Assembly (NCBI GenBank): GCA_963733055.1
Contig: CAVTBR010000003.1
Location: 712,460-776,459 of the forward strand
Direction of reading: 5' to 3'
Length of the DNA stretch: 64,000 bases
DNA from: Candidatus Bathyarchaeota archaeon
Lineage (GTDB): Archaea; Thermoproteota; Bathyarchaeia; 40CM-2-53-6
The notes under the pieces were generated by a model that was not told the DNA's origin, searched no databases, and saw nothing but the letters and a program-made list of their open reading frames with translations. Numbering within the stretch: position 1 is the stretch's first letter; every line of letters starts with the position of its first letter. The translations under genes were made by a program, and so were the position numbers. Shown piece by piece: positions 37,340-52,625 of the stretch.

Positions 37340-37948
37340 TTAGTCGATTTTGATTTCTTTGCCCTTTGGTCTAGGTTGGGTTTTGCGTAGGGTGATTTCT
37401 AGGACGCCGTTGTTGTATGAGGCCTTGGTGCTGTCGGGGTCTACGCCGGTCGGTAGTTGAACTTCCTTGTAGTACTTGTGGTTCGGTGAATCCACTCTGA
37501 TCGTTAATGCGTCCTCGTTGATGCTGGTCTTTATGTCGGACTTCTCGACGCCGGGTAGTTCCGCAACTACGCGCACTTGTGCTTGTTCGTTGATGACATC
37601 GACTAAGGGTTCACGGGTTTCTTTTGGTTCCAGGGCTGGTTGCTGCATGCCGAATGCGCCTGGGCGTCGGGATGGTTTCACGTTGCCGAACTCTTGTACG
37701 TTGGGCTTGCCGTCGGGGCCGATAGACATGGAGTAGCCGTAAACGAAGGGGCCGTACTGCTTCACGGTTGAACCGTCAGGTAGCTTTCTCTCAGTCATCA
37801 TGTCCTTCGGCATACCCTTGAGCATGTCCTGGAACATGTTCTCGAACATCTCATCGACGTCGCCGAACCAGCGGTCCATCCAACCGAAAGGAGACTGCCT
37901 GCCCTTTCGTGACCTAAACCATTCGGGAAGGAATTCGTCTGAAGACAT
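37340..37948 (-). CDS. hsp20: Archaeal small heat shock protein Hsp20
   Basis: GPFVYGYSM.IGPDGKP...EFGN, REPLVDV, AELPGVEK, ASYNNGVLEI; SD GAGGTGA upstream. Confidence 0.96.
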   Translation of the reverse strand: MSSDEFLPEWFRSRKGRQSPFGWMDRWFGDVDEMFENMFQDMLKGMPKDMMTERKLPDGSTVKQYGPFVYGYSMSIGPDGKPNVQEFGNVKPSRRPGAFGMQQPALEPKETREPLVDVINEQAQVRVVAELPGVEKSDIKTSINEDALTIRVDSPNHKYYKEVQLPTGVDPDSTKASYNNGVLEITLRKTQPRPKGKEIKID

Positions 37949-37977: not shown

Positions 37978-38025
37978 TGTTACCTTTAGTAACAGTCCGA
38001 TATAAATATTGTTACGTAAGGTAAC
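37978..38025 (-). promoter_or_regulatory. hsp20 promoter: TATA box flanked by two GTTAC-N5-GTAAC palindromes (putative heat-shock repressor operators)
   Basis: TGTTACCTTTAGTAACA at 37978-37994; TTTATA (minus strand) at 38001-38006; GTTACGTAAGGTAAC at 38011-38025. Confidence 0.7.
38012..38019. repeat. 8-bp target-site duplication TTACGTAA, copy 1
   Basis: Identical 8-mer immediately outside element ends at 38012, 40864 and 43658. Confidence 0.85.
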
Positions 38026-38081
38026 GTCAAGTCCTCGGTTGATAGGTTAGTTTCTTGTTGTTGTAAAAAAGCGGTTGATAA

Positions 38082-38651
38082 CTAGGACTTTGACTTAGGT
38101 CGGAGTAGAAGTGCGTCGGTCGTATCTTGCCTAATATCTGTAAGGCCCTTTCTTATCGAGGACTTATACGCATCGGAATATCGAGCATATCGGTTGTTGA
38201 GCGAATCGAAAACTCGAAGGTGCTCATCATCATAGCCAACTACTGTGAACATATGCTTGTTGCCATTAAGTTGGCCCGTGTAAACATCGTGCGATGGAAC
38301 GGAGATTATGTAAGGTAGTCCGTCATCCACACCTTTTTCCAGAGCGATAATTAGGTCTTCGAATGTCTTGAAGTCGGATGCGGGAAAATGTTTAGGCGTT
38401 CGTGACCAAGCTAAGTCTTCATGCGTCGAAAGAGGCGGCTCTGTGTAAGACAAAAGCCCAATGTCTGACTCAGGTTTTCGCATTCGTGCATTACACGCTG
38501 ATATGAAAACTTCAGAAAGCGCATTTTGGTTTATCTTCGAATCAGGTACGTGATAACGCGTAACGGCTTCAACATTCGCAAATGTACACCACCACCAATC
38601 TGCTTGCCGTACGCCGAAAGGGAAATCGTCGAACCTTGGTATGCACTTCAT
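38082..38651 (-). CDS. Cargo: papain-like C39-type cysteine peptidase
   Basis: Q..WWWC (Gln/Cys), HMFTVVGYDD (His), VFDS (Asp); ATG at 38651 overlaps the transposase stop (ATGA). Confidence 0.7.
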   Translation of the reverse strand: MKCIPRFDDFPFGVRQADWWWCTFANVEAVTRYHVPDSKINQNALSEVFISACNARMRKPESDIGLLSYTEPPLSTHEDLAWSRTPKHFPASDFKTFEDLIIALEKGVDDGLPYIISVPSHDVYTGQLNGNKHMFTVVGYDDEHLRVFDSLNNRYARYSDAYKSSIRKGLTDIRQDTTDALLLRPKSKS

Positions 38652-39802
38652 GTAAGCTCTTTCATGTTTCTTGCTTCTTTTGCGTTTTGGATGAGCGTTA
38701 GCCACTTGTTTTCACCGCTTATGGTTATTCCCGCTACTTCTGCCGGAGTTTTGCCGTTCAATGCCGTGTGTGGTCGTATGTAGTTGTGAAATAATTGATA
38801 GCCCCTAAGTATGGGACTGTCGGGCTTTTCGAGGGTACGCATTACACGTTCTCGGTCACGGATTTCCCCGTTCATGCGTTCCATTTTGTTATTGTGAACC
38901 GTTCCATCGAAGCGTATGTCGCGTATGTGTTCGGGACGATTCGCTAGTTTGCTTGTGTAGAACTCGTCGTTGAATGCTTCATGAAAGTTAGGCGCACCGT
39001 CAGTAATGAGGGTTCTGGGGTTCTTGTGTGCGATTGCCTTAGCTTGTTTAAACAGCGGTCGAATGTCAGCCGAATACTTGGTATCGGCTACCTCTTGCGC
39101 TATCCAGAAACGGGTTTGGTCATCCATTAGAGCGTAGAGATATTTCATGTTGCCATGAACTTTCAGAAAGAGTTCATCGGCTCTCCAAGTATCGCTTACC
39201 TGCGGTGTGATTTTGTCTAAGTATTTCTCCATCAGAGCCGTGTATTTCTCAATCCAGTTGTAAACGGTTTGGTGGCTAACCTGAGTGCCCAACAGTCTGA
39301 GTGACCGAGAAGTATTTCTGAGGCTCTCACCGGAGAAATAAAGTTGCATAGCCGTTGTGATAGCTTGCGGGTTGTGCTTCATGCGCTCGAAACCTAGATT
39401 CACGCTAAAGGTTCTATGACAATCCGCACAGAGGAATCGCTGAATGTCGCCGTACTTGTTGTGTCTGCACCCGAACTTCTTCAGGTTTGAGGATTGGCAG
39501 AATAGGCAGGATGTAATCGAAACGGGTTCAATCACGTTTTCTTTGACTTTCTCCCTTATCCTGAGGCTGAACTCTACAGCCCAAATGTGCTTACATCTTA
39601 AAATCTGGTGAAGCTCTGAGGCTCGGTAGTGGAAATCTAAACAATCACAAATCCATGAACCGTTCTCGCGACGAATAACATCATACATTCCATGTCCGTT
39701 CTGAGAAGCTACCTTGTAACTGCGCTCATCCATGCGCTGAATTTGGTTTGGTTTCTCAGCGATTAGTCGGCCTCTTTCTTCACGGGAGAGAACTGTTTGC
39801 AT
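38648..39802 (-). CDS. IS6-family (IS240-type) DDE transposase with N-terminal SWIM finger and Zn ribbon
   Basis: CDC..CKH (SWIM); CxxC..QRFLCxxC; HTH; WRADE, ITDG, HNNKMER, NYIRPH. Confidence 0.92.
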   Translation of the reverse strand: MQTVLSREERGRLIAEKPNQIQRMDERSYKVASQNGHGMYDVIRRENGSWICDCLDFHYRASELHQILRCKHIWAVEFSLRIREKVKENVIEPVSITSCLFCQSSNLKKFGCRHNKYGDIQRFLCADCHRTFSVNLGFERMKHNPQAITTAMQLYFSGESLRNTSRSLRLLGTQVSHQTVYNWIEKYTALMEKYLDKITPQVSDTWRADELFLKVHGNMKYLYALMDDQTRFWIAQEVADTKYSADIRPLFKQAKAIAHKNPRTLITDGAPNFHEAFNDEFYTSKLANRPEHIRDIRFDGTVHNNKMERMNGEIRDRERVMRTLEKPDSPILRGYQLFHNYIRPHTALNGKTPAEVAGITISGENKWLTLIQNAKEARNMKELT

Positions 39803-39811
39803 CGCTTTCAC

Positions 39812-39863
39812 GGCTACGATACTGTAGCCTAAGTTTAATATAAGGCTTACTACGATATCGTAG
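39812..39863. promoter_or_regulatory. Divergent promoter with paired CTAC-N6-GTAG operator-like sites
   Basis: GGCTACGATACTGTAGCC (39812-39829) and CTACGATATCGTAG (39850-39863), 36 bp apart, around the AT-rich core TTTAATATAA. Confidence 0.7.
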
Positions 39864-39874
39864 CTCTGAGAACA

Positions 39875-40057
39875 ATGGTCAGAAGAGAGATACTCGGCAA
39901 ATCCGAGCGTAAAGTACTAGAGGCATACTTCAACGGTAAACGAATGAAAGGATACACAACGCTCTTCACCCGAATACGGCAACTCGGACTAACCGCAATA
40001 ATCGAGGGATGTGAACACGATCTAGCTTTGTTGAGAAAGTTGAAGGGCGTACTCTAG
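39875..40057 (+). CDS. Conserved 60-aa transposon accessory protein (putative DNA-binding regulator)
   Basis: About 34/60 residues identical to the ORF at 42535-42726 (manual alignment); same position relative to the transposase. Confidence 0.85.
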   Translation: MVRREILGKSERKVLEAYFNGKRMKGYTTLFTRIRQLGLTAIIEGCEHDLALLRKLKGVL

Positions 40058-40748
40058 CCTAGAACCTGTGCTTCAACGCTTCCATTAGGTGTAGGCTTAA
40101 GTTCGATATGATGTAACTTGCCGTCAACGCTTGTTCTCAAAGTCAGCCTGAAAGGGGTTAGGTCTAGTCCAGATGCACCGGAAGCAACTCCCAAGAAGAT
40201 TGTATCAACGCTTTCGATTGTAAAGGCTAACAGTACTGTAGTTTGCCCGCCGTTTCTAGGAATTGTCTCTCTAGATACATGATGGATTCTGTCTCCACGG
40301 AAAGCAATTGTATATGGTTGATGTTTGCCCGCTGTTATTTCCAAATCACCTTCAGGGATGTGCGCATAGGTCAGTGGAAGCTCAACTGGGAAGAAATGCT
40401 TACTTGGCGGTGTCGCAGCCGAGGGAACATTAGTCACGGTACAATCCTTCGCGTCTGCCCTCCCGTTGTTTTGCAATTTCAGATACGTGAGGAACGCTTT
40501 CTTTGGGCCAAGGTTACTAACCTTACCCTTCTCATCTAGAAATGTCACATTCTTCGTTTGATATTCCATTGGAGGAAGGGCTTCAAACTTTAGCTTCGGT
40601 TTTAGAAAAAAATGCGATAGACTAGCCAAAATGCTGGTATCCCAAAAAGGATACCAGTCTCTATAATCAAAATCAACTCCCCCCAACTCGCTAAGGGAGG
40701 AATCCCCGCTGTCGTCGTGGTCGCATTTTGTAGGGGAAACATGGACAT
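40054..40748 (-). CDS. Cargo: N-terminally membrane-anchored beta-rich protein (frameshift at T7 run near 40606-40612)
   Basis: ATG 40748 gives MSMFPLQ...ELILIIETGILFGIPAFWLVYRIFF; one extra T joins it to LKPKLKFE...LKLQNNGRADAKDC of the called ORF. Confidence 0.6.
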
Positions 40749-40863
40749 CTTCTGTTCCGATTCCATATTTAACGCCTCTTAAGAAAGAAGCTGATTTCGA
40801 GCCATCAACCGAAATTTTACAACGAGAAGAACTAAGGCTATCAACCGTCATCTTGACGTTACC

Positions 40864-40871
40864 TTACGTAA
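40864..40871. repeat. 8-bp target-site duplication TTACGTAA, copy 2 (centre of 24-bp perfect palindrome 40856-40879)
   Basis: ACGTTACC-TTACGTAA-GGTAACGT junction between units 1 and 2. Confidence 0.9.
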
Positions 40872-40967
40872 GGTAACGTTACCTTAACGGTTGACGGCTC
40901 AAATTCTTGGTGCTGTTACCGTTCGGTTGATTTACCGCCAAGCCTCTCAAGCAGACAGGGCTTACTC

Positions 40968-41336
40968 TTGTATGCTTACGCTATCGGCACTACCATATTG
41001 GGAATCGTGGCAGGTGTATGTGCCGCTTTATTCCAAAAACGCAAAGAAAGCGTAGATGACGATATTGGATACCTAGAAGTTGGACAATGGTCCGCTCAAT
41101 TGTTTACCGTGGAGCATTTCAATGAGCGATTTGCTAACTATCACATCTACATAGACCCTAGTACAATACCAAACACGCCAGAGGCGACAATGACAGCCCC
41201 CTATGCTGCTTGCAGATATTTTCTAAGTAGGTTGAAAGCAATTAGAGACACTAGACGATTCACAGTTACCCTTTCCACCATTATCGCTGCTATTGCGATA
41301 GGCACAGCCGCGATACTATTCGCGTTTGGATTTTGA
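40968..41336 (+). CDS. Cargo: small two-TM membrane protein
   Basis: Hydrophobic N- and C-terminal segments; convergent with the transposase. Confidence 0.65.
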   Translation: MYAYAIGTTILGIVAGVCAALFQKRKESVDDDIGYLEVGQWSAQLFTVEHFNERFANYHIYIDPSTIPNTPEATMTAPYAACRYFLSRLKAIRDTRRFTVTLSTIIAAIAIGTAAILFAFGF

Positions 41337-42458
41337 TGCGTTCTGAATCAGCGTTAGCCACTTATTTTCGCCCTCAACTTTGATTCCTGCAACTTCCGCA
41401 GGTGTGCGACCTTTCAAACCCTCGTGCGGTCGAACAAAGTTGTGATAGATTTGCATACCCGTTAGAATTGGTGTATCAGGAATCTCAAGAGTACGCATGA
41501 CCTTCTCACGGTCCCTGAGTTCTCCGTTCATTCTTTCCATCTTATTGTTGTGGACTTGACCGTCAATGCGGATTTCTCGTATGTGTTCGGTTCCCGTTGG
41601 AGTCCAGAATTCTTTCTTGTACGCTTCATGGAAGTTTGGTGCACCGTCAGTTATCAGTGTCTTAGGTTGTTTACCTGCAATGTGTTTTCCGTGTTGAAAG
41701 AGTGAGCGAACATCAGCCGTGTACTTTGTATCGGCTACTTCTTGGGCTATCCAGAAGCGGGTTTGGTCATCCATGAGGGCATACAGGTATTTCATGTTCC
41801 CTTTCACTTTAAGAAATAGTTCATCCGCTCGCCATGTGTCAGATACGTTCGGTGTGATCTGGTTAGCGTAGTTCTGCATCAATGTCGTGTATTTCTTTAT
41901 CCACATGAAAACCGTCTTGTAACTCACCTGAACCCCAAGCAACCGTAGCGATCTAGCCGTATTCCTAAGCGATTCGCCTGAGAAGTACAACTGCATCGCG
42001 GTCGTTACTCCTTGCGGGCTGTGCTTCATCCGTTCAAATCCAACATTCACGCTGAAGGTGCGATCACAACTCACGCATAGAAAACGTTGAATGTCACCGT
42101 ACTTGTTGTGGCGTATGCCGAACCTTTTCAGAGCCTTATCGGAATGACAGTAAATGCAAGCAGTAATTTCGACAGGTCGAATGATTACGTTCTCCCGTAC
42201 CTTTTCTCGTAGCTGCTCGCGAATTTGACAGGCGATGATATGTTTGCAGCGAACAATATGTCGTTGCTCTAATGCGCGGTAGTGGAAATCTAGGCAGTTA
42301 CATAGCCACGAACCGCTTTCTCTATGGACTACATCATACATTCCATCCCCACGCTGAGAAGCGACTTTGTAGTGACTTTCATCCATCTGCTGGATTTGGC
42401 TTGGATTCTCAGCGATAAGTCGCCCCTTTTCTTCACGGGAGAGAACCGCTTTCTGCAT
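41316..42458 (-). CDS. IS6-family DDE transposase with SWIM finger and Zn ribbon (unit 2)
   Basis: Same architecture and motifs as 38648-39802, clearly diverged in sequence. Confidence 0.92.
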   Translation of the reverse strand: MQKAVLSREEKGRLIAENPSQIQQMDESHYKVASQRGDGMYDVVHRESGSWLCNCLDFHYRALEQRHIVRCKHIIACQIREQLREKVRENVIIRPVEITACIYCHSDKALKRFGIRHNKYGDIQRFLCVSCDRTFSVNVGFERMKHSPQGVTTAMQLYFSGESLRNTARSLRLLGVQVSYKTVFMWIKKYTTLMQNYANQITPNVSDTWRADELFLKVKGNMKYLYALMDDQTRFWIAQEVADTKYTADVRSLFQHGKHIAGKQPKTLITDGAPNFHEAYKKEFWTPTGTEHIREIRIDGQVHNNKMERMNGELRDREKVMRTLEIPDTPILTGMQIYHNFVRPHEGLKGRTPAEVAGIKVEGENKWLTLIQNASKSKRE

Positions 42459-42472
42459 GTCTTTCTACCTAA

Positions 42473-42523
42473 TGCAATATTGCTGCATAAGTAATATATA
42501 ACACTTACTGCAATACTGCTGCA
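42473..42523. promoter_or_regulatory. Divergent promoter with paired TGCA-N7-TGCA operator-like sites
   Basis: TGCAATATTGCTGCA (42473-42487) and TGCAATACTGCTGCA (42509-42523), 36 bp apart, around TAATATATAA. Confidence 0.7.
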
Positions 42524-42534
42524 CGGGTGATAGA

Positions 42535-42726
42535 ATGGTCCGAAAACAGATACTAGGCGATTGGGAACGCAATATCCTAGAATCATATCTGAAAGGCGAG
42601 AAACTAAAAGGCTATACAGCGTTGTTATCTAGAATACGAAGCATGGGATTAAAGGCAATCATTGAAGGGTGCGAGCACGATTTGGTGATACTGAAACGCC
42701 TCGCCAAATCTGAGGCGACAATGTGA
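42535..42726 (+). CDS. Conserved 63-aa transposon accessory protein
   Basis: Paralog of 39875-40057 (shared AIIEGCEHDL, KGYT, RIR). Confidence 0.85.
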   Translation: MVRKQILGDWERNILESYLKGEKLKGYTALLSRIRSMGLKAIIEGCEHDLVILKRLAKSEATM

Positions 42727-43397
42727 GTAAATACATGCTTGGAGTAAGCCGGTTAAGGCTCGCCATTTGCGCGATCGTCATTTTATGTATCGGTGCAAGT
42801 CTATTTATTGAAGGCGGAATGTACCCGAAGGCAACTCTCTATTCGCTTAACTATAGCTACCTAAGCTATGCCTTTCTCGCTCTTGCGTTTGTTTTCATAT
42901 CTCCAACTATCTTGAACGCAGCTAAAGCGTGGAGAGCGATAGTCAACGATCTTGCAACTAAGAGAAAACTGGGCAAAGATGATTGGAATATCGAGGAGAC
43001 GCGTGGAATCTTTGCTCTGGGCATCATAGGGACCATCATAGTGGTGAGAACGGACAAAAACGTAATCGCCATGGATTCTACTGGGTACTTGTTGTTTGCC
43101 ATGAATGTCATGTTGGCCTGTTGGGTAGCCTATTCAATTTGCATGGCAATTGCACTACCTAACGAGTGGATTAGTCAACGAGTAAGAATTTGGAGTTTCC
43201 TAAGTGCTCAACTGTTATTTGTTTTCGGTGTCGTAATAACTGTCGCCGTTGGTTTGACGGGTTTTGTGACATATGTTTTAAGTGATTTCAAGGCAACTCC
43301 TCTTTATCCTTGGATAATCGGAATAACCGTTTGCCTTTCAAGTTTCGGAGTTGCCTTGCTTTTCTTCGAACCGAGAGAAGAATTTCAGACCGCGTAA
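42723..43397 (+). CDS. Cargo: multi-pass (about 6 TM) membrane protein
   Basis: Highly hydrophobic 224-aa ORF, translationally coupled (GTGA) to the accessory ORF. Confidence 0.7.
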   Translation: MSKYMLGVSRLRLAICAIVILCIGASLFIEGGMYPKATLYSLNYSYLSYAFLALAFVFISPTILNAAKAWRAIVNDLATKRKLGKDDWNIEETRGIFALGIIGTIIVVRTDKNVIAMDSTGYLLFAMNVMLACWVAYSICMAIALPNEWISQRVRIWSFLSAQLLFVFGVVITVAVGLTGFVTYVLSDFKATPLYPWIIGITVCLSSFGVALLFFEPREEFQTA

Positions 43398-43517
43398 TGT
43401 TAAGCCGCTTGAGCACGAGAGAATCCCGATGACGACTAAAGGTTGCAGATTATGGTTCACTATGATGTAGACTGTGCCAATCACAAGTAGGAAAAGCGAA
43501 CAAAAGAACGCTCCCAA
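43338..43517 (-). CDS. Possible small hydrophobic cargo ORF (59 aa)
   Basis: TTG-GAFFCSLFLLVIGTVYIIV...LVVIGILSCSS; overlaps the 3' end of the opposite gene by 60 bp. Confidence 0.25.
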   Translation of the reverse strand: MGAFFCSLFLLVIGTVYIIVNHNLQPLVVIGILSCSSGLTLRGLKFFSRFEEKQGNSET

Positions 43518-43657
43518 ATAGAAATCTCGTAACTCCTTCTTGTTCGTTCACTTTTACGCTTCTATTCCTCCTTAGTCTAGACCGATAGAATCCTTCCATC
43601 AACCGGACGGTAACAGTTGGATTCTATCCAGTTTTCAACCGTAGAGGTAACGTTACC

Positions 43658-43665
43658 TTACGTAA
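43658..43665. repeat. 8-bp target-site duplication TTACGTAA, copy 3 (centre of 24-bp perfect palindrome 43650-43673)
   Basis: ACGTTACC-TTACGTAA-GGTAACGT junction between units 2 and 3. Confidence 0.9.
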
Positions 43666-43725
43666 GGTAACGTGAAGTTCACGGTTGATAGGATATGCTG
43701 TGAAAAATCGGTTGATACTCTCTCA

Positions 43726-44199
43726 CTAACCGTGAATACGATGTTTCAGCCAAAATTGAATTGCCACGGTTAATCCAGCGGCTATGAATAATCCTATGAT
43801 GGCTCCAATCTGCCCATCAAGAAGATAGCCACCCACAGGGAATATAATTCCGAGAATGCTGAATGTCGCAGTTCTCCAAGACGAGATTTGTGTCTGACCT
43901 ACGTAAACCGACTTACCAGTAAGGAATGTGTAACCCACCAAGATAATGCAATAGCCAGAAAAGAAAACCACCCAAGACACTACTTCGTAGGACGCACCAC
44001 CAATGAAATGAATACTGGCGGAAACGATTCCCGAAATCAGGAGCGCTGCAAGGTAGATTGGTGAAGTCTTGAACTTAGACTTTGGCGCTATCTTACCCGC
44101 ACGATCGTGTTTAGAGGAAAGCGGGGCTTGGCAGACAGTGCAGTAGCTGTATTGATCGCTGACTTTTGACCCGCATTTTCCGCATTTAACGGTGCGCAA
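43726..44199 (-). CDS. Cargo: zinc-ribbon plus 4-TM membrane protein
   Basis: CGKCG...YCTVC N-terminus followed by four hydrophobic segments. Confidence 0.75.
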   Translation of the reverse strand: MRTVKCGKCGSKVSDQYSYCTVCQAPLSSKHDRAGKIAPKSKFKTSPIYLAALLISGIVSASIHFIGGASYEVVSWVVFFSGYCIILVGYTFLTGKSVYVGQTQISSWRTATFSILGIIFPVGGYLLDGQIGAIIGLFIAAGLTVAIQFWLKHRIHG

Positions 44200-44269
44200 C
44201 GATTTGACTTCGAACTAGTGCTTTGAGCTGCGTTCTGAATTAAGGTTGATTCCTTCCTGACATAGTAGG

Positions 44270-44674
44270 CTAGAATGGATGCTTTGGCCTGTCCTTGATC
44301 GCGTAATATGGCTTTTGAAAGTGTAGAAGGATTGCGACCGCCACAACTAATACGACTAGAATGAGAATCGCTAGATAGTCGAAATGGGTAAGCGTTGCTG
44401 TTGCGTTCGACGAAACGGTGATGGTACGAACTACCGTATATTGACTCTCAGCGGTGATGCATCCTTCATCAAAACCACATGGAACAGTTGCCACCGTCTC
44501 AGGTACAACGTAAGTAAAACTAACAGCTGTGCCTAGAGTTGTTGTCTGTGAAGTCATCGACTGAAGAGAGGATTGAAGAAGCAATTCAAAATGACCGAAT
44601 ACAAGCAAAACAGCAACTACGGCTAGAAGAAAGAGATAGCGACGCAGATGCGACTTCGGCGGCGGTCTCATCAA
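44270..44674 (-). CDS. Cargo: two-TM protein with Thr/Ser-rich extracellular linker
   Basis: N- and C-terminal TMs; start overlaps the stop of the transposase fragment. Confidence 0.65.
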   Translation of the reverse strand: MMRPPPKSHLRRYLFLLAVVAVLLVFGHFELLLQSSLQSMTSQTTTLGTAVSFTYVVPETVATVPCGFDEGCITAESQYTVVRTITVSSNATATLTHFDYLAILILVVLVVAVAILLHFQKPYYAIKDRPKHPF

Positions 44675-44990
44675 ATCCTAGAACCAGTAGCATTCTTAGA
44701 AGCGTTTTGTATTAGAGTTAACCACTTGTTTTCACCGTCAACTGTGATTCCTGCCGCTTCACTTGGAGTGTGACCGTTTAACGCTTCATGTGGACGAATG
44801 TAGTTGTGGAAGATTTGCATACCTGACAGAATCGCTGTATCGGGCTTTTCTAAGGTGCGCATGACCTTCTCTCTTTGGCGGAGCTCGCCGTTCATGCGCT
44901 CCATCTTGTTATTGTGTCGAACATCATCAAACGCAATATCTCCGATAGGTTCGCTTCGTGCTTCTAGCCGAGTTGCGTGGAATTCTTTCC
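44671..44990 (-). pseudogene. 3' fragment of IS6-like transposase
   Basis: KEFHATRLEARSEPIGDIAFDDVRHNNKMERMNGELRQRE...NKWLTLIQNA aligns to the C-termini of the two full copies; similarity lost beyond about 44990. Confidence 0.88.
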
Positions 44991-45240
44991 TTTTCCGGCA
45001 TGGTTCAAAACTGCGTTTCGAAGCTGGAGAAAATCCCGCTTAGATGGATTGGTCAAGAGCGATTCCACTTAGTAGAACGGAACGGCAGTTGGTGGAACAC
45101 TTCGGAGGGTGTTTTTCTCGGACGACCTGATACTTTGACGGAACGATTCAAGGACTTTGAAGGCTTCAATGCGAGGTTTTGGGTTTCAAAGTGAGGTTTT
45201 TGCGATTCAAGATGGCGGCGCCGCGGCGCGTGATGTTGCC

Positions 45241-45570
45241 ATGCCAGATCATACCACCAAGGAGTTCAATGATGAAGTCAAATTGGCTATTGATAATGCG
45301 ATCTACACGCTACTAGGGCAGCAGGTTCTCAGGGCTGTATACGATCACTTGAGAGAGCGTTACGATGTAACGGGAGATGAGCTCCCTTATCGGTTGGACA
45401 CCTTGTTCGAGACGCTTGAAGCCACTTTCGGGCTTAAGGGTGCATTAACCCTTGGCCGAGTGATCGCGAGGTGCGTTTATGCTCGAATGGGACTGAGATT
45501 CATCGAACTACCAAATTATACACTTCAGGATTATTTGGAGCGCGCCAAGCAGCAATTAGCCCTAACGTAG
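45241..45570 (+). CDS. Small helical protein, DUF3227/NitrOD5-like
   Basis: AID..I..LLG..V..A.Y.HL...Y....DELPYRLD.L...LE..FG pattern. Confidence 0.6.
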   Translation: MPDHTTKEFNDEVKLAIDNAIYTLLGQQVLRAVYDHLRERYDVTGDELPYRLDTLFETLEATFGLKGALTLGRVIARCVYARMGLRFIELPNYTLQDYLERAKQQLALT

Positions 45571-45990
45571 TACCCAACCTAGGTTCTCTGGAGGTGACTG
45601 AAGCGCCAACAGATTTTGTGTTGAATCCTTCGGCTGGTAACTAACATCTTCATTTGGTGGTTGCGGCTGCATGAGGTCTTCGGCGAGTATGCGCTTCAAC
45701 TCTTCGACGTGCTCTGTGAAAGTGCGCTCGATCTTAAGGTCTAATGGAACATTCGCTTTAGCGTACAGTTTCTTGACTATCACCCTTCCCAAGGTCTCCC
45801 CTCCAACTCCGAAAGCGCCCTTAAGGGACGCAAACAGGGTGTCCAAGCGGTAGGGCATCTCATCACGAGTGATTCCAAGAAACGCCTGATAATGGTACCA
45901 AAATGCTGCCGTTACTCTGTTTCCCAAGACTTCGGAAATAGCTTCGTCTACAGAATCAATGAGAAGATCATTGAAGTCAGTAAGATGCAT
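45562..45990 (-). CDS. Small helical protein, DUF3227/NitrOD5-like (paralog of neighbour)
   Basis: Shares FND, DE.PYRLDTLF..L...FG..G.TLGRVI...YA with 45241-45570. Confidence 0.65.
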   Translation of the reverse strand: MHLTDFNDLLIDSVDEAISEVLGNRVTAAFWYHYQAFLGITRDEMPYRLDTLFASLKGAFGVGGETLGRVIVKKLYAKANVPLDLKIERTFTEHVEELKRILAEDLMQPQPPNEDVSYQPKDSTQNLLALQSPPENLGWVLR

Positions 45991-46071
45991 TCTTGGCAAG
46001 GAGAAAAGGCAAATAAGATTACTCAAAATCTTGCAGTTAAGACTTGCGTAAACTCAAGCTTCTCTTCTCGG

Positions 46072-47614: not shown

Positions 47615-47798
47615 AGTGCAATCTTCTCGAAAGGATTCCGATACACCTTCAAATTCGTTCTATAACCAACCGCCGTTCGCGAATAAAAATAAACCACAAA
47701 ATGACGCTCAATCACAAACACACAACCCTCACTGCAATGGCCGGGCGCAATCCGAGCGTTGCTCTCAAATAGCAGACGAGTTTCATCCGACTCCGCTC

Positions 47799-48311
47799 AT
47801 GACCAAGGATCTTCTCGGCGAGGTATTCGATCTCATTTATTCGAAGAACAGAACGGAAGAAGCAATTCTGAAGCTCAACTCTGTAATCAAGTCCTCCCCG
47901 GAAAACAGTCGAGCCATCGCACTCAAGGCATACGCACTCAACAAATTGGCCAATCTCCACAAGGAGTGGCAATATTCGAAATTGGCTTTGGAATTTGCCG
48001 AACGGGCATTGTCATTAAACCCCAACGACGACATCGCATTCACAAGTCAAGGCTGGGCTCTGATCGACTTGGGCAGGGCGAACGAGGCGATACCCGCGCT
48101 GAATCAGGCTACGAGGATTAATCCGAACAATGAATTTGCGTGGTACAACCTGGCTTGGGCCCAATACCTCACCGGGAACGCGCTTGCCTCAACGGAATCC
48201 ATCCGCAGAGCTCTCGCTCTCAGTCCTAACAATCCGATCCTAAGACGGGGCAAGGAGATGATGCAGAAAGGCGAGGTGCCGAAGCATTTGAGGAAACGTT
48301 CTCAGCAGTAA
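47799..48311 (+). CDS. Tetratricopeptide repeat protein
   Basis: Repeated A...L.P.N..A...G/L.A TPR pattern; likely ATG at 47799. Confidence 0.85.
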   Translation: MTKDLLGEVFDLIYSKNRTEEAILKLNSVIKSSPENSRAIALKAYALNKLANLHKEWQYSKLALEFAERALSLNPNDDIAFTSQGWALIDLGRANEAIPALNQATRINPNNEFAWYNLAWAQYLTGNALASTESIRRALALSPNNPILRRGKEMMQKGEVPKHLRKRSQQ

Positions 48312-48323
48312 GCTCTAGGCCGA

Positions 48324-49814
48324 CTAACCTTTGGTTACGCCGATTGGAGTAAGGCGGGCGACTTTGGTTGCTATGCCGAGTTGGTGGCTGACTTCGGCTA
48401 CGCTGTCGACGTTCTTGTAGGCTTCGGGGGCCTCCTCACTTACGGTTCCTATGTTCTCGGCTCTGATCATGATTCCTTTCTTACTGAGCAATTCTTCGAC
48501 GGCACTCGCGGGGTTCCTTCTCTTCGCCGCCGCGCGGCTCATGAACCTCCCCGCTCCATGCGCCGTCGTCCCGAAACTAAGCTCCATCGACTTCGGCGCC
48601 CCTATCAAAACCCACGATGCGGTACCCATGCTTCCCGGGATAAGGACCGGTTGCCCAATGTCACGATATTCGGATGGTATGGCTTGGTGGCCTGGGGGAA
48701 AGGCCCGAGTCGCCCCTTTCCTGTGAACGTAAACCTTCTTCATTCCCCCATCAACCGCATGCTCCTCAATCTTCGCGATGTTGTGGCATACGTCGTAGAT
48801 CAAGCCCATGTCGAGCTGGTCCGCTGATTTCCCAAAAATCTTCTCAAATGATTCCCTGGTCCAATGGGTGATCATTTGCCTGTTTGACCAGGCGAAATTT
48901 GCCGCGCAAGACATGGCACCGATATAATCTTCAACCTCATTACTCTTCGCCGGTGCGCAGGCCAGCTGCCTATCGGGCAACTTGATCCCGTATTTCTGAA
49001 TCGCGTGTTCCATAACCCTGAGGTAATCGCTACAAACCTGATAGCCGAACCCCCTGCTGCCGGTGTGAACTAGAACTAGCACTTGCCCTTCTTTTCGAAT
49101 TCCAAGTTTCTCCGCTACGGGCTGATCGAAAATCTTGTCCACCCTTTCTATCTCGAGAAAATGGTTGCCGCTCCCTAAGCTTCCAAGTTGGGGTGCACCA
49201 CGTTGCTTCGCAACCCCAGACACCTTGTCCGGATCAGCTGTCTCCATGCACCCGTTCTCCTCACAGTGCTTCTGATCCTCAGCCCAACCATAACCATGCT
49301 CAACAGCCCACTCCACCCCCTCTCGCGTGACCTTCTCCAAATCTCCCTGTGAAAGCCTCCCAACCTTCCCACGACTCCCCAAACCAGAAGGAACATTCAC
49401 AAACATAGTATCCAGCAACTTCCCCAAGAAGGGCCGAACATCCGCCTCCATCAGATTCGTCCTGATCAATCTGACGCCACAATTTATGTCATAGCCGATT
49501 CCGCCGGGGCTTACGACGCCTTCGTCGTAGTCGCTTGCCGCTACTCCTCCTATTGGGAATCCGTATCCTTCGTGGCCGTCGGGCATTGTGATTGCCCAGT
49601 TGTATAGGCCTGGTAGCGTCGCCACATTGGCGCATTGTTGGAGTGTGGCGTCTGTTCGCATTTTCGCGATGAGTGCGTCGTCAGCGTATATTCTCCCAGG
49701 CACTGTCATTCCCGGTTGAGAGTCCTTCGGAATCTCCCAGACGTACTTGTCGATCTGTTTGAGTGCAACTTGCTGTGAGGCTCGGCCGTATGCTGGTTGC
49801 GACATTTTGGCCAC
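48324..49814 (-). CDS. rtcB: RNA-splicing ligase RtcB
   Basis: MPDGHEGYGFPIGG, GYDINCG, GSGNHFLE, HTGSRG, HRKGATR, HGAGR. Confidence 0.97.
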   Translation of the reverse strand: MAKMSQPAYGRASQQVALKQIDKYVWEIPKDSQPGMTVPGRIYADDALIAKMRTDATLQQCANVATLPGLYNWAITMPDGHEGYGFPIGGVAASDYDEGVVSPGGIGYDINCGVRLIRTNLMEADVRPFLGKLLDTMFVNVPSGLGSRGKVGRLSQGDLEKVTREGVEWAVEHGYGWAEDQKHCEENGCMETADPDKVSGVAKQRGAPQLGSLGSGNHFLEIERVDKIFDQPVAEKLGIRKEGQVLVLVHTGSRGFGYQVCSDYLRVMEHAIQKYGIKLPDRQLACAPAKSNEVEDYIGAMSCAANFAWSNRQMITHWTRESFEKIFGKSADQLDMGLIYDVCHNIAKIEEHAVDGGMKKVYVHRKGATRAFPPGHQAIPSEYRDIGQPVLIPGSMGTASWVLIGAPKSMELSFGTTAHGAGRFMSRAAAKRRNPASAVEELLSKKGIMIRAENIGTVSEEAPEAYKNVDSVAEVSHQLGIATKVARLTPIGVTKG

Positions 49815-51878: not shown

Positions 51879-52625
51879 TTAGTCTGCGTGACCATTGTTC
51901 CAGTTCGTAATAACACCGAGAGCTTCTGTCAGACTTCCGACCCTTGCGTCCGGGTTCACGAAAGACATACCTTCGATCGGTTTGCGAAGTATATGAATCG
52001 AACGCATTCCCATCCTCTTTGAACCCACGACATCCGCTTCCATTGAGTCACCCACAAAAATCGAATCAGATGCCTTCACTCCCAAGGAACTCAAAGCCTG
52101 AGTGAAGATTTCTTGGCGCGGCTTCCTGATCCTCAGCGCAGCAGAACTCAGAATGGTCTTGAAGAATCCGTTTAGGTTACGCCGTTCTAATATCGCGTGC
52201 ACAGCATAGTCGCTCTTTGCGTTTGAGACTATCCCCATGACGTAACCCTGCCCCTCGAGGGCGGCTAGTGTTTCGATTGTATCGGGGTAGACCTGCCAAG
52301 ACTCAATTTCCGGTTTGAAGAACTCAACCATAGCATTCGTTGGCAGTTCCATGCCTTGATGCTCTAATCCGGACTTCGTTAGAGTCTTTGAGATGATTTC
52401 TTCCATCGGAATCTCAATTTTACGTAAGTTCGCTTCGTCGGAGGCGTGGTTGAATTGTTTTGCGAATTTTTTCGCGAATTTCTCTGAATCCAGTTTCAGA
52501 CCTTGCGTGCTAAGATAGTTGTAGAGTTGTTGGAGGTTCGCTTGGAAGATATCCTCCCAGGGTCGGTCTAGGTGTACCAACGTGTCACCGAGGTCGAGAA
52601 AGACCGCCCTGACCAACGCTATCAC
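51879..52625 (-). CDS. HAD-family hydrolase
   Basis: DLGDTL, VSN, RKP, VGDS..AD. Confidence 0.92.
   Translation of the reverse strand: MIALVRAVFLDLGDTLVHLDRPWEDIFQANLQQLYNYLSTQGLKLDSEKFAKKFAKQFNHASDEANLRKIEIPMEEIISKTLTKSGLEHQGMELPTNAMVEFFKPEIESWQVYPDTIETLAALEGQGYVMGIVSNAKSDYAVHAILERRNLNGFFKTILSSAALRIRKPRQEIFTQALSSLGVKASDSIFVGDSMEADVVGSKRMGMRSIHILRKPIEGMSFVNPDARVGSLTEALGVITNWNNGHAD

Follow-up and report, generated by a model that had tools for sequence, protein, structure and literature searches.

Insertion sequences (IS) of the IS6 family, such as IS26, IS257, and IS240, are usually about 0.7-0.9 kb long (up to ∼1.7 kb) and carry only a transposase gene. As described in PMC7986276, they have inverted repeats of 15-20 bp with GG tips and a cTGTt..caaa motif, and the archaeal members are 700-750 bp long, a single one having one passenger gene. 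The elements described here do not fit that size or that simple content. They form a stack directly upstream of an hsp20 gene in a 64,000-nucleotide stretch of DNA from Candidatus Bathyarchaeota archaeon (assembly GCA_963733055.1, contig CAVTBR010000003.1, positions 712,460-776,459; "the window" below is this whole stretch, and the genome it comes from, G000, is called the source genome). Like the IS6 family, they have an IS240-type DDE domain, GG tips, and 8-bp duplications, the wider family to which they belong has GGTTCTGTCAAG tips that resemble the IS6 consensus, and there are hints of replicative intramolecular events in the form of inverted identical copies and inverted spacers. On the other hand, the units are 2.0-6.0 kb long with several cargo genes, their ends are 55-68 bp long with two subterminal repeats, the transposase has an extra N-terminal domain and is accompanied by a conserved 60-aa partner gene, its score lies under the curated IS6 cut-off, and insertion is in register with a promoter. 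The evidence throughout is comparative, and on it we consider it quite probable that the stack comprises three different cargo-carrying, IS6-related DDE transposons that integrate in register with a promoter, with repeated insertions stacking as a result.

Several other systems share parts of this behavior. Tn7-like elements, casposons, and tyrosine-recombinase elements can also re-use one chromosomal site and build arrays of different elements there; for archaea, PMC6563490 reports tandem casposons and re-use of sites, also by recombinase elements. Those sites, however, are defined by the 3′ end of a gene or by a tRNA gene, and dedicated target selectors or recombinases recognize them, whereas the common denominator here is the TATA-box register at several different genes. 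Instead of a TnsABC core plus selector, each unit has one transposase and one 60-aa protein, and no AAA+ or TnsA-like gene was found in the three units by open reading frame (ORF) list, Pfam, or NCBIfam. The stack resembles integrons in that unrelated cargo units gather at one fixed point beside a promoter, with signs of a polarity in which the newest unit is nearest the anchor. It differs from them in lacking a tyrosine recombinase (none was found among the array ORFs in a Pfam scan), attI, and attC, each unit having its own DDE transposase and inverted ends instead; in addition, the cargo is not driven by the anchoring promoter, which points in the opposite direction, away from the stack. 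The closest parallels in target choice are eukaryotic. The integrase of the retrotransposon Ty3 contacts TFIIIB, and P elements favor Drosophila hsp70 promoters. The likeness lies in integration at a set distance from a promoter element to which TBP and a TFIIB-like factor bind, a preference for heat-shock promoters, and a target gene left intact; contact of the archaeal elements with TBP or TFB would be hypothetical. No description of such elements, of such stacks, or of archaeal TATA-register targeting was found in the full texts searched (supplements apart), and the IS tables of PMC6563490 might list members of this family.

The array consists of two complete units of 2844 and 2786 bp (unit 1, 38020-40863; unit 2, 40872-43657) and a truncated third (43666-44990, with its left end at 43666 kept), all on the minus strand and head to tail, each following a copy of the 8-mer TTACGTAA. 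The copies lie at 38012-38019 (promoter-proximal), 40864-40871 (between units 1 and 2), and 43658-43665 (between units 2 and 3); all three run directly into GGTAACG, and CGTTACC stands directly before the two internal copies as well. Two more copies in the window, at 52420 and 57902, have neither neighbor. Five occurrences in the window compare with 0.50 expected (five or more in none of 100 shuffles). The inverted ends are 68 nt and 79% complementary in unit 1 and 57 nt and 91% complementary in unit 2. Aligned ends share one build, with the tip GGTAACG and subterminal repeats about 17 nt and 50 nt inward. The repeat word is specific to the element: CGGTTGA in the window (two in each unit 1 end, 38020-38079 and 40804-40863), and CGTCAGC or CGTTTGG elsewhere in the source genome.

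The hsp20 gene (37340-37948, minus strand; NCBIfam NF041800 archaeal Hsp20, 183.8 bits against a cut-off of 140) is preceded by a TATA box, TTTATAT, at 38000-38006 on the minus strand, and the stack begins 5 bp upstream of this box, nucleotides 38007-38011 lying between it and the duplicated 8-mer. Within the order, 85 of 105 genomes yielded an hsp20 ortholog, and hsp20 lies beside arrays in loci of six other species in the set that was collected with the transposase as bait. When hsp20 itself was used as bait across the genus, 16 of 18 loci had an element end at exactly the 8-mer followed by CAA[T/A]A and TTTATAT; the other two were empty. The surrounding gene order is hsp20, array, in some cases a Cys-rich gene, a TPR protein gene, and RtcB. 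The last two, at 47793-48248 (plus strand) and 48327-48803 (minus strand) in the window, are conserved host genes that lie 0.3-1.5 kb from hsp20 in empty-site genomes; the array between hsp20 and TPR/RtcB ranges from 0.3 to more than 13 kb, and from an end remnant of ∼40 nt to five or more units. The 8-mer at the hsp20 site varies by species (TTACGTAA in seven loci, TGGCGTAA and AGTAGTAA in two each, five others once each), and each species' own 8-mer recurs at the junctions of its array, occasionally with a single mismatch or in reversed orientation. Arrays of species with 91%-identical hsp20 DNA contain no close counterparts of units 1-3, which indicates that the arrays were built and turned over independently. 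No hsp20 array has a clean distal flank with the same 8-mer beside host DNA, the distal units being truncated in all arrays examined.

In both empty loci (L111 and L112, in genomes G046 and G053) 3 nt rather than 5 separate the equivalent of the 8-mer from the TATA box. Both also carry GTTACC right before the 8-mer, a sequence that resembles an element tip. At occupied hsp20 sites the element tip GTTACC stands in for this native upstream half-site of the empty alleles, and so the upstream palindrome (see below) would be rebuilt upon insertion.

The family is widespread. The source genome contains four full-length transposases and about 10 fragments, and relatives are common in Bathyarchaeia and Nitrososphaeria, with 325 matches in species genomes and 415 in metagenomes; loci around 79 and 78 of these, respectively, were studied, each scan being limited to 80 loci. 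An end profile search of the collected loci and the source genome yielded 262 ends, 237 of them unique, and every unique end is GG-tipped. Nitrososphaeria-type ends have the GGTTCTGTCAAG reading, whereas the window units read GGTAACG, without cTGTt at the tip. The 67 units that could be paired measure 0.6-6.0 kb (median 3.1 kb); 55 have a full transposase (2.0-5.3 kb), and seven have none and are short non-autonomous forms. Three such derivatives, at C2:505890-506474 (585 bp) and C2:506527-507151 (625 bp) in the source genome and at L077:12021-12618 (598 bp), have family ends and perfect 8-bp duplications; the first two lie 52 bp apart, and their 8-mers are unrelated. Identical 8-mers flank 43 of the 67 paired units and 14 of the 23 solitary units. 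Stacking is a family trait: of the 237 unique ends, 112 lie exactly 8 bp from a neighboring end (92 of 153 with GGTAAC tips and 20 of 84 with other tips). In the pattern CGTTACC-N(x)-GGTAACG the peak is likewise at x = 8, and the remaining peaks derive from those junctions as well. Separate arrays can be told apart by their spacers, of which there are at least 15, and the architecture recurs in dozens of separate assemblies.

The position of the promoter was examined by reading outward from non-abutted ends for TTTATAT with at most one mismatch, in 106 independent flank clusters in which the 17 hsp20 flanks were counted as one. The box occurs at offset 5 past the duplication in 17 clusters, and at every other offset from 0 to 45 in none to three; a reverse-complement control is flat across offsets, and the Poisson probability of the offset-5 peak is ∼1.6e-23. 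Both tip lineages have the peak (6 of 44 and 11 of 62 clusters). Among arrays, defined by source and spacer, that have a visible outer flank, 20 of 22 have a TATA box at offset 5, and the remaining two have a looser TATA box plus the operator described below; manual reading adds L030, L080, and three sites of the source genome to the TATA-anchored set. The box lies on exactly one side of 9 of the 23 solitary elements and on both sides of none, which argues for a directional promoter feature and not for a symmetric target preference of the transposase.

In elements with GGTAAC tips a second feature accompanies the box. The palindrome GTTAC-N5-GTAAC is present in all six strict TATA flanks of such elements and in only one of 11 for other tips; four looser GGTAAC-tip flanks also have it, and the operator starts 5-6 nt downstream of the box. 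In the window it lies at 37979-37994, 5 nt downstream of the hsp20 TATA box, and is conserved upstream of hsp20 orthologs. It occurs in just eight places in the 2.88-Mb source genome, and the composite motif (TATA box, N5, operator) in three. Each of these three sites is occupied, namely those at hsp20, at htpX (C3:639690), and at C2:46315, where a decayed stretch comes after an intact 3.7-kb unit. At the CDC48 promoter, which is empty, the spacing of the operator differs. Targets in other genomes include htpX (L029, L200) and a thermosome gene (the L193 cluster), and an other-tip array in the source genome lies at the rps17e promoter, which lacks the operator. The palindrome is sometimes also found upstream of the TATA box; its places include window 37979-37994 and 38005-38024, G000:C1:383049-383094, G000:C3:639690, and the L029, L193, and L200 flanks. 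We infer that GTTAC-N5-GTAAC is a heat-shock repressor site. The set of hsp20, htpX, CDC48, and thermosome genes presumably resembles the Phr regulon of Pyrococcus.

The proximal unit of the L024 hsp20 array matches a solitary element (L025) of the same genome at 100% identity over 2748 bp, and the solitary one has its own duplication, ATCCCGAG; the cargo therefore travels together with the element, and the 8-bp duplication is made on insertion. A copy that is identical yet has another 8-mer also indicates that TTACGTAA itself is not the target. A second, untargeted insertion mode exists. Polarity was judged on the hsp20-anchored sample only, the other loci being biased by having been baited with an intact transposase. 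Six hsp20-anchored arrays (source genome, G042, G044, G049, G001, and G043) have an intact proximal transposase; in the first five the most distal unit seen has transposase fragments only, and in G043 the contig stops before the last unit does. At eight other hsp20-anchored sites only decayed units or remnants are left. In G001, two units (C4:833793-836436 and 841457-844100; L023 and L022) of 2644 bp are 100% identical, inverted, and bracket two other units, and in L019 and G049 one array spacer is in reversed orientation. Such an arrangement would be consistent with a replicative event within one molecule that used the proximal 8-mer as its target; according to PMC7986276, an event of this kind by IS6 elements inverts the intervening DNA.

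The most serious alternative is that transposase bound to a resident end, or to an end-like host sequence, captures an incoming element, with the adjacent 8 bp being cut and the promoter being only the place where the first copy happened to insert. Such behavior has precedents, since IS911 and IS30 target inverted repeats and IS26 has a targeted conservative mode. The many ends that abut one another at 8 bp, the tip-like GTTACC before the 8-mer of both empty hsp20 sites, the identical copy at an internal array position in G001, and the arrays that have no visible TATA flank (L019, L021, and L017) would all be expected from it. Solitary elements with no neighboring end, however, sit at the same TATA register in 9 of 23 cases, nearly all visible-flank arrays finish at an offset-5 box, nothing end-like precedes the 8-mer at htpX and other targets, and the internal G001 copy is inverted, as expected for an intramolecular replicative attack on the proximal 8-mer. 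We therefore regard it as unlikely to be the general explanation, although end-targeting could contribute to stacking.

Less probable still is survivorship alone, in which insertion is random and selection retains copies in harmless intergenic DNA upstream of promoters. Insertions within genes would indeed be purged, and untargeted copies do exist (L025, and the short C2:505890 and C2:506527 elements with their unrelated 8-mers), but selection cannot account for the single-base register (17 flanks at offset 5 versus none to three elsewhere), for up to five or more different units having used the same 8-mer, or for the occupancy of all three composite operator sites in the genome. Finally, hardly any weight can be given to the ideas that TTACGTAA itself is recognized (it is palindromic, enriched in the window, and the 8-mer at 7 of 16 occupied hsp20 loci, but the other nine carry seven different 8-mers, other arrays have unrelated ones such as CTGTTGAG, GCCGAAAG, CATCTGAG, and TCATTTAT, and only the three copies in the array among 34 in the genome flank ends), that the array arose by tandem duplication (transposase, subterminal repeats, and cargo are not the same from unit to unit), or that it is a chimeric assembly (dozens of separate assemblies have the same architecture).

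These comparisons bear on an earlier note on this DNA, made from the window's sequence. Its proposal that independent family members had inserted repeatedly at exactly one base position, building an array that gathers genes, is borne out by the 16 occupied hsp20 loci with their own 8-mer at every junction and by units whose content and number differ among species. Two hsp20 loci are empty, other heat-shock genes (htpX and the thermosome gene) prove to be targets as it had suggested, and the chimeric assembly that it raised as a danger is not what the other assemblies indicate. Two points have to be changed. The varied 8-bp duplications found at unrelated sites, which the note had named as a refutation, refute strict sequence specificity but not site targeting. 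Judging from the sequences compared, the 8-mer, which varies by species and array, is not the recognized feature; what stays the same is the TATA-box register and, in the GGTAACG-tip lineage, the operator.

A number of observations weigh against integration in register with a promoter or limit its reach. No offset-5 box is present at 14 of the 23 solitary elements and 89 of the 106 flank clusters; the TATA-like box is 2 nt off register in L031 and L043, and the visible flank of L083 and of L045 has none. That the TTTATAT boxes are promoters we infer from their sequence and conservation, and a crude test for outward ORFs gave no separation between TATA flanks (10 of 17) and other flanks (50 of 78). 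Because species of the genus partly owe the occupancy of hsp20 to common descent, the 16 loci cannot be counted as that many separate insertions, and the loci studied outside the hsp20 set are the capped subset of matches given above, collected with the transposase as bait. Lastly, the intact fourth unit of the G001 array is identical to the proximal one, which breaks a strict newest-is-proximal order there.

If integration is in register with the promoter, the stack could have arisen as follows. Insertions preferentially leave exactly 5 bp between the duplicated 8 bp and a TTTATAT box downstream of it; the promoters chosen by the GGTAACG-tip lineage also have GTTAC-N5-GTAAC 5 bp downstream of the box. 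The duplication would keep the TATA box, the 5 bp, and one copy of the 8-mer unbroken beside the gene, so the same register would be open to another insertion, and the next element would land in the gap between the promoter and the resident unit. The outcome would be head-to-tail units separated by identical 8-mers, in which the newest unit tends to be promoter-proximal and older, decayed units lie farther out. The anchoring promoter should stay usable, and at hsp20 the upstream operator half-site would be rebuilt by the tip GTTACC. The register may be read by the transposase contacting DNA or through contact with a TBP/TFB/repressor complex on a poised promoter. More tentatively, and with somewhat less than even confidence, we suggest that the transpososome reads the archaeal pre-initiation complex, that is, TBP and TFB on the TATA box and the B recognition element, joined in Bathyarchaeia by the repressor on the operator whose half-site the tips copy, and that this sets the staggered cut 5-13 bp upstream of the TATA box. 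The source genome has two TBP genes (C1:1496076-1496591 and C3:574915-575427) and three TFB genes (C3:215794-216723, C1:1571381-1572304, and C3:41004-41555); elsewhere in the genus the number of TBP domain matches per genome reaches 12, equal to about six genes.

The two complete units follow one plan, namely end, cargo, transposase gene on the minus strand, small ORF of 60 or 63 aa on the plus strand, cargo, end. In unit 1 these are a 207-aa C39-like peptidase (38082-38705, minus strand; Pfam PF13529, E 1.2e-5, 26.4 bits against a cut-off of 24), a 387-aa transposase (38648-39811, minus strand) with an N-terminal CxC..CxH motif, a Zn ribbon, and an IS6-like DDE domain, the 60-aa gene (39875-40057, plus strand), and a 265-aa protein without a family match (40054-40851, minus strand). 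Unit 2 has a 122-aa cargo protein (40968-41336, plus strand), a 380-aa transposase (41316-42458, minus strand) that is 72% identical to that of unit 1, the 63-aa gene (42535-42726, plus strand), and a 224-aa hydrophobic protein (42723-43397, plus strand), neither cargo protein having a family match. Unit 3 retains cargo ORFs at 43726-44199 and 44270-44674 and only the C-terminal part of its transposase, residues 283-377, which finishes at 44985. A repeat search found no repeats between units 1 and 2 beyond the transposase and the ends, and their cargo proteins belong to different Pfam families or have no match. The earlier note had correctly identified the three ends that directly follow the identical 8-mer, the common plan of two complete units with differing transposases and cargo, and the right limit of the array at 44990.

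The transposases match PF13610 (DDE_Tnp_IS240) with 52.8 and 53.8 bits against a cut-off of 27; among NCBIfam models the IS6 family (NF033587) scores best, yet its 109.8 and 97 bits fall short of the curated cut-off of 125. Residues 102-136 of the unit 1 transposase match an IS1/IS1595-type Zn domain (29.1 bits, cut-off 28). The CxC..CxH motif looks SWIM-like by eye, and the Pfam match to the SWIM finger is just E 1.2 and 9.2 bits, so this assignment is not claimed. The small ORF beside the transposase is kept in 10 aligned copies that are 57-88% identical, and the 60-aa protein is modeled as three helices with a predicted local distance difference test score (pLDDT) of 89. It has no Pfam or NCBIfam family even at E 10 and no PDB match at E ≤0.001; its gene position suggests that it is a regulator or partner of the transposase. 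In the gap between the transposase gene and the small ORF (39812-39874 and 42459-42534) a unit-specific repeat stands on both sides of a TATA-like box, CTACGATA twice in unit 1 and TGCAATA[T/C]TGCTGCA twice in unit 2; these repeats may be candidate binding sites of each unit's own small protein. The window cargo comprises the C39-like peptidase and proteins without a Pfam or NCBIfam family. Among the 100 of 145 non-redundant cargo ORFs of the family that were scanned, 30 Pfam families were found, each in one to three ORFs, including DNA methylases, Mrr-type nucleases, PIN, a TIR effector domain, DUF3800, glyoxalase, and GNAT.

Just past unit 3 lie two convergent, overlapping ORFs, 45157-45570 (plus strand, 137 aa) and 45562-46026 (minus strand, 154 aa), which are paralogs of each other with a common ...PYRLDTLF...LGRVI... 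block. Between the array and the TPR gene, the segment 46060-47037 (roadblock-like and KaiC-like genes) is shared by only the two closest species at 73-80% DNA identity, which places the distal edge of the array somewhere in about 44990-46060; no recognizable element end was found at that edge. Public reads were uninformative on chimerism, excision, and expression, with no RNA data set listed among those containing the sequence: one soil run contained 16% of the sampled words in low-depth contigs of ∼200 bp and bridged no junction, the single weak joint having one side of 25 letters, below the threshold of trust.

The target choice of archaeal transposons is largely unexplored, and a single-base register to the TATA box in two archaeal classes would make promoter-guided integration directly testable outside the eukaryotes. 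The register rule would amount to a natural "safe harbor" for archaeal genomes, and the stacks would explain the origin of variable islands beside conserved stress genes in soil and peat Bathyarchaeia. The IS6 family, which has been thought to be small, transposase-only, and unspecific, is extended by these elements, which carry several genes, have long structured ends, and encode a partner protein. The operator GTTAC-N5-GTAAC at the hsp20, htpX, CDC48, and thermosome genes outlines a candidate heat-shock regulon of uncultured archaea. If the pre-initiation complex is indeed what is read, it would be an archaeal counterpart of Ty3/TFIIIB targeting, and the promoters of stress genes would be polar, integron-like platforms at which defense and accessory genes gather while the promoter stays unbroken.

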